DNA of 64,000 nucleotides from Candidatus Puniceispirillum sp. (GCA_013822015.1 PNJU01000006.1:7231-71230), one strand, 5' to 3'. Numbered from the stretch's first letter, positions 61,752 through 63,987 are shown. Made by a program: numbers and translations. Notes: a model not told the origin generated them from the sequence alone.

Positions 61752-61779
61752 TTGACAGATCCACTTTCATCGCTAGTAT
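61752..61779 (+). promoter_or_regulatory. Sigma70-type promoter for riboswitch-nrdA
   Basis: TTGACA-N16-TAGTAT directly before the aptamer. Confidence 0.6.
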
Positions 61780-61782
61780 GGA

Positions 61783-61965
61783 AGCGTTCTTACGGTGCGT
61801 GACGTTTTAAGCACGTCGCGCTGAAAAGGGAATCCGGTGAAAATCCGGAGCTGCCCCCGCAACTGTAATTGGTTAGGACATTACCTTCTTTGCCACTGGC
61901 GCTACGCGCTGGGAAGGTTGGGTGAAGGTCCAGTGATCCAAGAGTCAGGAGACCTGCCGCAAGAT
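61783..61965 (+). ncRNA. Cobalamin (B12) riboswitch
   Basis: CGGTGC...AAAAGGGAATCCGGTGAAAATCCGGAGCTGCCCCCGCAACTGTA...GCCACTG...GGGAAGG...AGTCAGGAGACCTGCC, the established B12-element core. Confidence 0.96.
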
Positions 61966-62064
61966 GATTGACTGAACTGCCGGGCGGGGTGCACCGAGTG
62001 AGAGAACACATACACGTCGTGTATATTCCCTTACCTACCTTGCCCTCCACATGAGAGGGTAACA

Positions 62065-63987
62065 ATGTTAACAAATGCTTATGATTTCGATCGTAACGGA
62101 CACCTTGTGTCCTTTGATCCAACGCGCCAGGTGGTGCCGTTTCCACAAACCAAGGAACAGAAGGACCTTTATAAAAAAGCGGCTGCAGACCCCGTTTTGC
62201 AGAAGGTGTATCCTGCGTCCCTGCGCCTTGATAACAGCCGCGACGCCCTTTTGACGGATTTTGGCAAGGCGACTCTGGATGACCGGTACGTCCTGGAAGG
62301 GGAAAGTTACCAGCAAATGTTTGCGCGCGTCGCCTGCGCCTACGCCGACTCCCAGGACCATGCCCAGCGCCTTTATGATTATATGTCGCAGTTGTGGTTC
62401 ATGCCTTCAACGCCCATTTTGTCCAATGGGGGTGCCAAGCGTGGCCTGCCCATTTCATGCTTTTTGAATACGGTCTCCGACTCCCTTGACGGCATTGTCT
62501 CCACCTGGAACGAGAACGTGCTTCTGGCCAGCAGTGGGGGCGGTATTGGGACCTATTGGGGCTTTGTGCGCGGGGTGGGCGAGGACGTGGGGCGCGCGGG
62601 CAAGACCTCTGGCATTATTCCCTTCGTGCGCGTCATGGACTCTTTGACCCTGGCCATCAGCCAGGGAAGCCTGCGCCGGGGGTCAGCTGCCGTGTACTTG
62701 GACGTGCACCATCCAGAAATTGAGGAGTTTCTGGAGATCCGTAAACCGTCCGGGGACTTTAACCGCAAGAGCCTCAATCTGCACCATGGCATTAACATTA
62801 CGGACGCCTTTATGGAGGCGGTGCGTAAGGACGAGATGTTTGGCCTGCGTAGTCCCAAGGATGACCGTGTTGTCAAAACCGTCAATGCAAGACAGCTCTT
62901 TCAAAAGATTGTGGAGATGCGTCTTCAAACGGGCGAGCCCTACTTGATTTTCATTGACGCGGCCAACCGCGCGCTGCCCAAGCACCAACGGGATTTGGGG
63001 CTGAAGGTGCGCATGAGCAATCTGTGCAGCGAGATTTTGCTGCCCACGGGCCCTGACCATTTGGGCAAGGACCGCACGGCCGTATGTTGCCTGTCGTCCA
63101 TGAACGCGGCCACCTGGGATCAGTGGTGCAACAACGACCGGATCATTGAGGACGTGTTGCGCTTTTTGGACAATGTGCTCCAAGAGTACATTGATACAGC
63201 ACCCTTGGGGATGGCGCGGGCGAAATACGCGGCCATGCGAGAGCGCTCTGTCGGGCTTGGGCTCATGGGATTCCACTCCTTTTTGCAAAGCAAGGGCGTG
63301 CCCTTTGAGAGCGCCATGGCTAAAAGCTGGAACCTGAAGATGTTTCGCCACCTGCGCCGCCAGGCGGACGCGGCGTCAGTCACCCTGGCCCAGGAGCGCG
63401 GTGCCTGCCCGGACGCAGCAGCCCGCGGGATCAAGGCGCGCTTTTCCCATAAGCTGGCCATTGCGCCAACGGCTTCCATCAGCGTGATCTGTGGGGGCAC
63501 GTCCGCCTGCATTGAGCCCATTCCTGCCAATATCTATAACCACAAAACCTTATCGGGCAACTTTGCGGTGAAGAATCCTGATCTCCAGGCGCTCTTGGCA
63601 AAAAAGGGGCTCGACACGGAAGAAACATGGCGCTCTATTGTAGAGCAAGAGGGCTCCGTTCAGCACCTGAATGGCCTCTCGGATCAAGAAAAAGCCATCT
63701 TCAAAACGGCCTTTGAAATTGACCAGCGCTGGATCATTGAGCTGGCCAGTGACCGCACGCCCTTTGTGTGCCAGGGACAGTCTGTGAATCTCTTCCTGCC
63801 CGCGGACGTGAATAAGTGGGATCTTTTGATGCTGCACTGGAGCGCGTGGGAAAAAGGGCTCAAAAGCCTTTACTACTGCCGCTCAAAATCCATTCAACGC
63901 GCTGAACACACGGGGGGCGAGGGTAAAATCTCTCAACACCTTGAAACACAACAAACCAATTATGAGGAGTGCCTTGCATGTCAGTAA
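62065..63987 (+). CDS. nrdA: Class I ribonucleotide reductase alpha subunit
   Basis: MPSTP, GLPISCFL, SNLCSEI, AIAPTASIS, QGQSVNL, KSLYYCRS (tyrosine pair), C-terminal EECLACQ; no ATP-cone seen. Confidence 0.95.
   Translation: MLTNAYDFDRNGHLVSFDPTRQVVPFPQTKEQKDLYKKAAADPVLQKVYPASLRLDNSRDALLTDFGKATLDDRYVLEGESYQQMFARVACAYADSQDHAQRLYDYMSQLWFMPSTPILSNGGAKRGLPISCFLNTVSDSLDGIVSTWNENVLLASSGGGIGTYWGFVRGVGEDVGRAGKTSGIIPFVRVMDSLTLAISQGSLRRGSAAVYLDVHHPEIEEFLEIRKPSGDFNRKSLNLHHGINITDAFMEAVRKDEMFGLRSPKDDRVVKTVNARQLFQKIVEMRLQTGEPYLIFIDAANRALPKHQRDLGLKVRMSNLCSEILLPTGPDHLGKDRTAVCCLSSMNAATWDQWCNNDRIIEDVLRFLDNVLQEYIDTAPLGMARAKYAAMRERSVGLGLMGFHSFLQSKGVPFESAMAKSWNLKMFRHLRRQADAASVTLAQERGACPDAAARGIKARFSHKLAIAPTASISVICGGTSACIEPIPANIYNHKTLSGNFAVKNPDLQALLAKKGLDTEETWRSIVEQEGSVQHLNGLSDQEKAIFKTAFEIDQRWIIELASDRTPFVCQGQSVNLFLPADVNKWDLLMLHWSAWEKGLKSLYYCRSKSIQRAEHTGGEGKISQHLETQQTNYEECLACQ

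Follow-up and report, generated by a model that had tools for sequence, protein, structure and literature searches.

A predicted translational cobalamin riboswitch on the class I ribonucleotide reductase genes nrdAB of an uncultured intracellular alphaproteobacterium that also encodes NrdJ

Among ribonucleotide reductases (RNRs), vitamin B12 takes part in a choice between isozymes: the isozyme that is independent of the cofactor is repressed when B12 is available (PMC545781). B12 elements are found before nrdAB/nrdDG or metE in genomes that possess NrdJ or MetH (PMC545781 and its reference 26), and B12 riboswitches on the nrdABS operon of Streptomyces and on other RNR operons are cited in PMC12528414. 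The way in which such an element can act on translation has been described for the btuB riboswitch of Escherichia coli and for env8, in which a kissing loop between L5 and L13 stabilises P13 and promotes a hairpin at the ribosome-binding site (RBS); the coupling of the kissing loop to RBS sequestration is a step that is still poorly understood (PMC10327014).

The locus described here lies in a stretch of 64,000 nucleotides, hereafter the window, which corresponds to C6:7231-71230 of a 1.98-Mb assembly that consists of 18 contigs and is 99.7% complete. Our main reading is that a cobalamin riboswitch, most likely for adenosylcobalamin (AdoCbl), represses nrdAB when B12 is present, and that NrdJ then supplies the deoxyribonucleotides. 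The switch would act on translation by means of the L13 arm and a kissing loop, and B12 would be imported and adenosylated rather than made. We put the probability of this reading at roughly 0.88; AdoCbl as the ligand and repression as the direction of regulation are what we infer.

The coordinates of the features are collected in Table 1. Within the 64-kb window, the only Rfam match is the cobalamin riboswitch ahead of nrdA. Its score of 125.4 bits exceeds the Rfam gathering threshold (31.5 bits), the E-value being 4.6e-31, and the match spans all of model positions 1-189 of 189 and includes the peripheral P6 extension. The B12 box and the conserved core junction motifs are all found in the aptamer, including the GGGAA…GGUG core and the 3' side CAGGAGACCUGCC. 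There is no gene between the aptamer and nrdA, which are on the same strand, and the distance from the end of the aptamer to the ATG of nrdA is 89 nt.

A promoter before the riboswitch is plausible from a match to the sigma-70 consensus only, in which TTGACA (61752-61757) and TAGTAT (61774-61779) are separated by a 16-nt spacer; promoter-like sites number 2 in the 800-nt region, compared with 0.6 expected from shuffles. Part of this putative promoter coincides with the unpaired 5' flank of the Rfam match, and the predicted transcription start falls a few nucleotides inside the match, ahead of the part that corresponds to the canonical P1.

At the other end of the leader, the two core arms of the hairpin that is predicted to sequester the Shine-Dalgarno (SD) sequence enclose the loop CACATGA, and the 3' arm ends 4 nt 5' of the ATG. 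When the last 45 nt of the leader are folded separately, the energy is -11.1 kcal/mol (z = -2.9 relative to shuffles). No terminator-like site was found on the plus strand between 61500 and 62300. An earlier note on this DNA had described a promoter, a full aptamer and the hairpin at 62042-62060 in a leader free of terminators, and from these it had proposed a B12 riboswitch on class I nrdAB that is probably translational. All of these elements were recovered in the same places, and the computational tests of this reading agreed with it.

Two observations concern the region immediately upstream. Three closely spaced copies of (T/G)GTGTCA occur at window positions 61719-61757, just upstream of the -35 hexamer of the nrdA promoter and overlapping it; the triplet could be a transcription-factor site. 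Directly upstream and divergent from the promoter are two leucine-rich-repeat (LRR_6 type) genes on the minus strand (59418-60734 and 60778-61725), the second of which encodes a protein with an apparent signal peptide. LRR proteins of that kind are typical eukaryote-like effector candidates in amoeba symbionts.

Table 1. Features of the nrdA leader and the start of the nrdAB operon, in window coordinates
Feature	Position	Strand	Basis
Sigma-70-like promoter	61752..61779	+	Consensus, 10/12 positions
Cobalamin riboswitch aptamer RF00174	61776..61975	+	125.4 bits, full model
L5 loop region GCCCCCGC, putative aptamer-side kissing-loop partner	61853..61860	+	Sequence, Rfam alignment
B12 box core GCCACTG	61892..61898	+	Sequence, Rfam match
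P13/L13 hairpin: stem CGG/CCG, loop GCGGGGTGCA	61981..61996	+	Sequence, motif CGGGCGGGGTG
Predicted ligand-free (ON) pairing: GGGCGGGGUG 61982-61991 with UACCUUGCCC 62036-62045	61982..62045	+	Unconstrained MFE
SD-sequestering hairpin, core GCCCUC 62042-62047 / GAGGGU 62055-62060; SD GAGGG 62055-62059	62040..62062	+	Sequence, folding
nrdA, class I ribonucleotide reductase alpha subunit, 640 aa	62065..63987	+	NF006577, 1000.7 bits
SD GAGGAG 63964-63969 and nrdB start, ATG 63978	63964..64000	+	Sequence, NF007186

The NrdA protein exceeds the NF006577 cut-off of 620 bits and contains the Ribonuc_red_lgN and lgC domains only (all-alpha and barrel), the ATP-cone being absent. The start of the gene is backed by an N-terminus (…NAYDFD) that is conserved in relatives. 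Its best solved relatives are 6dqw and 6dqx, and its nearest relatives are from MAGs labelled CAED1 (98%), Rickettsiales and Paracaedibacteraceae. The nrdB gene, which the earlier note had proposed to look for beyond the window, follows directly: it shares its first 10 nt with the end of nrdA, leaves the window and ends at C6:72302, encoding a protein of 364 aa that scores 511 bits with NF007186 (cut-off 237). In an alignment with the R2 protein of C. trachomatis, the first metal ligand of NrdB is an Asp, and its radical site carries a Tyr opposite F127 of the chlamydial protein. The closest solved relative of NrdB is 9dws, and a search for a literature match for this PDB entry found none. The overlap of the two genes suggests that translation of nrdB may be coupled to that of nrdA.

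The proposed mechanism switches between two structures of the leader. Without ligand, the G-run of L13 would pair with the C-rich segment that makes up the sequestor's 5' arm, and the SD sequence would remain unpaired, allowing translation of nrdA and, via the overlap, of nrdB. With ligand, L5 of the aptamer would capture L13 as a kissing loop and P13 would be stabilised; the freed C-rich arm would then pair with the SD sequence and block initiation. The class I, oxygen-dependent nrdAB would thus be off in the presence of B12, with the class II enzyme NrdJ supplying the deoxyribonucleotides. We identify the hairpin upstream of the sequestor as P13/L13 because its loop is complementary to the CCCCGC of L5: the putative kissing partners are GCGGGG (61984-61989) in L13 and CCCCGC (61855-61860) in L5. 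An activating riboswitch was rejected, since a P13 stabilised by a kissing loop and followed by an RBS hairpin is of the repressing type.

Folding of the window leader is consistent with the alternative pairing. The unconstrained minimum free energy (MFE) structure contains the GGGCGGGGUG/UACCUUGCCC duplex (-17.2 kcal/mol; z = -2.1 relative to shuffles), which encloses a variable linker hairpin and occupies the sequestor's 5' arm. If pairing of L13 is prevented, the leader folds into the sequestor, and the average probability of being unpaired in the SD window drops from 0.49 to 0.24, as against 0.36 when other hexamers are blocked. In thermodynamic folds of 27 related leaders, the switch between anti-sequestor and sequestor appears in 11, namely the window leader and 10 others. 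The remaining 16 have the SD hairpin in both states, so that co-transcriptional kinetics or the fold model limit this test. In GC-rich relatives, the complementarity between L13 and the arm is no better than in shuffles.

These 27 nrdA leaders were selected by the P13/L13 motif CGGGCGGGGTG, and in all the leaders so selected the hairpin CGG-GCGGGGUGCA-CCG is unchanged and lies 76-110 nt before the ATG. Each of them also has an SD-containing hairpin beside the ATG, whose arm sequences differ from leader to leader and stay complementary; the pairs of SD and 5' arm include GAGGG/CCCUC, AGAGG/CCUCU, GGAGAAAG/CUUUCUCC and AUGAGGG/CCCUUAU, the last with a G·U pair. The L5 string GCCCCCGC is exact in 12 of the 20 Rfam-confirmed nrdA leaders; one leader (L034) has CCCCCAC, and 7 are not captured by the pattern. 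Where they are readable, L5 and L13 are invariant except for this single G-to-A change in L5, and therefore the kissing loop is without covariation support, covariation speaking neither for nor against it. A control with the SD hairpins of riboswitch-free nrdA leaders was dropped, as only 6 starts could be placed and 3 of these (L034, L058 and L071) bear a riboswitch. In a wider scan of 39 related alphaproteobacterial loci, Rfam placed a riboswitch immediately ahead of nrdA in 18, one of them being that of the cultured, free-living Pseudolabrys.

The window leader has the features of the btuB-type platform, i.e., an SD sequence in the 3' arm of a hairpin, no intrinsic terminator and P13 upstream, and by this analogy its control would fit the btuB/env8 type. 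Alternatively, the switch may act mainly on the amount of transcript, with Rho-dependent termination or decay of the mRNA taking place in the leader or early nrdA. To judge from the title of Borovok 2006, as cited in PMC12528414, the Streptomyces nrdABS element controls transcription, and translational repression of E. coli btuB is reported to trigger mechanisms at the mRNA level (PMC11162775). However, the leader is without an intrinsic terminator, the SD-containing hairpin is the conserved element beside the ATG throughout the 27 leaders, and any RNA-level effect would be explained most simply as a consequence of repressed translation. We regard predominantly transcript-level control as unlikely and retain the translational switch as the preferred reading.

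The counterpart of nrdAB, an intact NrdJ, is encoded on the same contig as the window, about 30 kb downstream (C6:99209-102886), as the earlier note had expected of this genome. The protein of 1225 aa is uninterrupted by stops and scores 2115.4 bits with NF005736, compared with a cut-off of 1737, over positions 1-1222 of 1222. The 99.7%-complete genome has two cobalamin riboswitches only, one being that at nrdA. The second (C2:129257-129482, minus strand) lies ahead of the gene for a 606-aa TonB-dependent receptor, which is followed by a TonB-family gene. The receptor has Plug and barrel domains and is matched weakly by BtuB models. The genome also encodes an adenosyltransferase of the PduO type (196.9 bits). 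About 9 kb from the second riboswitch there is a patatin-like phospholipase (L088:1845-2954, minus strand; C2:117844-118953) that resembles a CBASS cGAMP-activated lipase, with a score of 181.5 bits, just under the 200-bit cut-off.

Searches of the genome found none of the B12 synthesis markers CbiB and CobA/BtuR, no proteins with a B12-binding domain, neither NrdD nor NrdR, and no B12 choice of the MetH/MetE type. In view of these negative results, NrdJ is apparently the single enzyme of the genome that uses B12. The organism seems to be a B12 auxotroph, and we infer that its cobalamin is supplied by the host or the environment. As for the route to AdoCbl, the receptor under riboswitch control and the PduO adenosyltransferase are present, and the synthesis markers and an inner-membrane B12 transporter were not found in the genome, FecCD/BtuC being sought above the cut-off. 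B12 would not be made; it would be taken up by the riboswitch-controlled receptor and then adenosylated by the PduO-type enzyme. The earlier note had proposed import of host cobalamin and a search for btuB/btuFCD. Import itself is supported by the riboswitch-preceded receptor and the adenosyltransferase, with the host as a presumed source; of the transport genes, the search yielded the TonB-dependent receptor, with its weak BtuB matches, and no BtuC-type permease above the cut-off.

The sole FecCD-like match, which was tried as a B12 permease, is a permease of the ABC-3 (metal) type and lies below the cut-off. Because a BtuCD-type importer was not found, the gene next to nrdJ is a candidate corrinoid transporter that is worth testing, with no support so far. 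It encodes an ABC half-transporter of 604 aa (L090:7246-9060, minus strand; C6:97245-99059), is divergent from nrdJ and lies 150 nt away from it; the protein is generic and MsbA-like, and falls under all NCBIfam cut-offs.

The earlier note had also raised a quite different role for the riboswitch, in which B12 turns off the only usable RNR, so that cobalamin from the host limits replication of the symbiont. Nothing in the genome of the window favours this, and the one relevant case is a relative, G017, which has a riboswitch before nrdA and in which NrdJ was not found (see below). Against it stands NrdJ itself, full length, uninterrupted and above the equivalog cut-off, together with the uptake receptor and the adenosyltransferase; moreover, NrdJ is also present in the three genomes of the same genus. 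Since nrdJ is intact, the riboswitch is to be read as the known isoenzyme switch and not as a replication brake operated by the host, a proposal that we consider extremely improbable for this genome.

The isoenzyme switch was also compared with the distribution of the two enzymes in 41 related genomes, which are kin, so that the following counts carry no statistical claim. A riboswitch adjoins nrdA in 12 of the genomes, and in 11 of these 12, NrdJ is found above the cut-off. A class I nrdA without NrdJ occurs in five genomes (G014, G030, G036, G037 and G038); a riboswitch beside nrdA is found in none of the five, which fit the logic of the isoenzyme switch. Two of these NrdJ-less relatives contain frames, L093 (G014:C4:416948-417493) and L094 (G030:C5:117308-117790), that are 66-69% identical to NrdJ residues ~950-1130, i.e., to the C-terminal region only; these frames are remnants or, alternatively, encode an independent domain protein.

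The genomes of L009 and L010 have NrdJ as well as nrdA, and the aptamer is absent; riboswitch control is therefore not obligatory where both enzymes are present. A prediction that relatives that lose the aptamer also lose NrdJ fails on the same two genomes, as NrdJ is kept both by L009, with its decayed aptamer, and by L010, with no riboswitch. In L009, which is from an 'uncultured Rickettsiales' MAG, the nrdA leader (L009:2760-3000) retains a P1-like stem (GTGTCGCAC…GTGCGACAC), the exact P13/L13 motif and the SD hairpin; the aptamer core is absent from this leader, and no Rfam match was found in it. With the core gone and NrdJ still in the genome, we take this leader for a riboswitch relic.

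In G017, a genome from the same order that is 99% complete in 140 contigs, nrdA is preceded by an intact cobalamin riboswitch with P13/L13 and the SD-sequestering hairpin (L095:849-1137, equal to G017:C7:6845-7133), and neither HMM nor protein search found NrdJ in it. This is a lead only: either the assembly has a gap, or B12 shuts off the only RNR of G017. One may speculate further that in this order the whole B12 economy (riboswitch-gated receptor, PduO adenosyltransferase, NrdJ and nrdAB riboswitch) serves the choice of RNR and nothing else, and that G017 has lost NrdJ, so that external, possibly host, cobalamin throttles DNA synthesis there; we hold this to be a long shot.

That the window aptamer is itself decaying and nrdAB constitutive is scarcely credible even though relics such as L009 exist in the group, for the aptamer reaches 125 bits across the whole model, has an exact B12 box and an exact L5, and is conserved at the 98% level in a sister genome (L008, 122 bits) and comparably in distant genera.

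An intracellular lifestyle is supported by three ATP/ADP-translocase (TLC) genes, located at window positions 8262-9716 (plus strand; C6:15492-16946), C5:151387-152868 and C5:26392-27333, which also support the earlier note in calling the organism a symbiont. Two of the three are full length (602 and 521 bits), and none of 14 control genomes has one. ATP/ADP translocases are a hallmark of intracellular energy parasites. A separate observation on the assembly is that contigs C11 (97.8 kb) and C14 (25.0 kb) have a GC content of 46%, compared with 52-55% in all others, which may reflect a plasmid, a foreign element or contamination at the binning step.

In general terms, the locus offers an uncultured intracellular alphaproteobacterium as a clean and well-conserved case of a riboswitch logic known from textbooks, and is of little importance beyond annotation. 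It is mildly unusual in that a B12 auxotroph seemingly has no B12-dependent enzyme other than NrdJ and one relative may lack NrdJ, and also in that the riboswitch on nrdAB is not accompanied by control through NrdR or an ATP-cone. An import of B12 that apparently serves NrdJ alone bears on oxygen or iron limitation in the host and on the vitamin traffic between host and symbiont. In addition, the leader family, with its invariant L13 and co-varying SD hairpins in more than 25 genomes, provides a natural series for the study of the coupling between the kissing loop and the RBS.

With E. coli btuB (PMC10327014), the window leader shares the aptamer class, an L13 that is complementary to L5, the order of P13 followed by an RBS-sequestering hairpin, and the lack of a terminator. 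It differs in that it would regulate an RNR rather than the receptor, and in that the pairing of L13 with the sequestor arm is a prediction only. The closest likeness in the regulated genes is Streptomyces coelicolor nrdABS (Borovok et al. 2006, J Bacteriol 188:2512, as cited in PMC12528414), in which a B12 riboswitch lies in the leader of a class I RNR operon, in a genome that also has the class II NrdJ, with B12 favouring the B12-dependent enzyme. The S. coelicolor element is reported to act on transcription, whereas the window has an SD-sequestering hairpin and no terminator. Furthermore, unlike S. coelicolor nrdABS, the window has no nrdS regulator gene, its alpha subunit is without an ATP-cone, and its source is a reduced intracellular alphaproteobacterium. 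The isozyme rule of PMC545781 holds at the window nrdAB with the same logic, although this genome applies it to RNR only, and the nrdA riboswitch is best read as the well-known isoenzyme switch in which the B12 enzyme is used when B12 is present.
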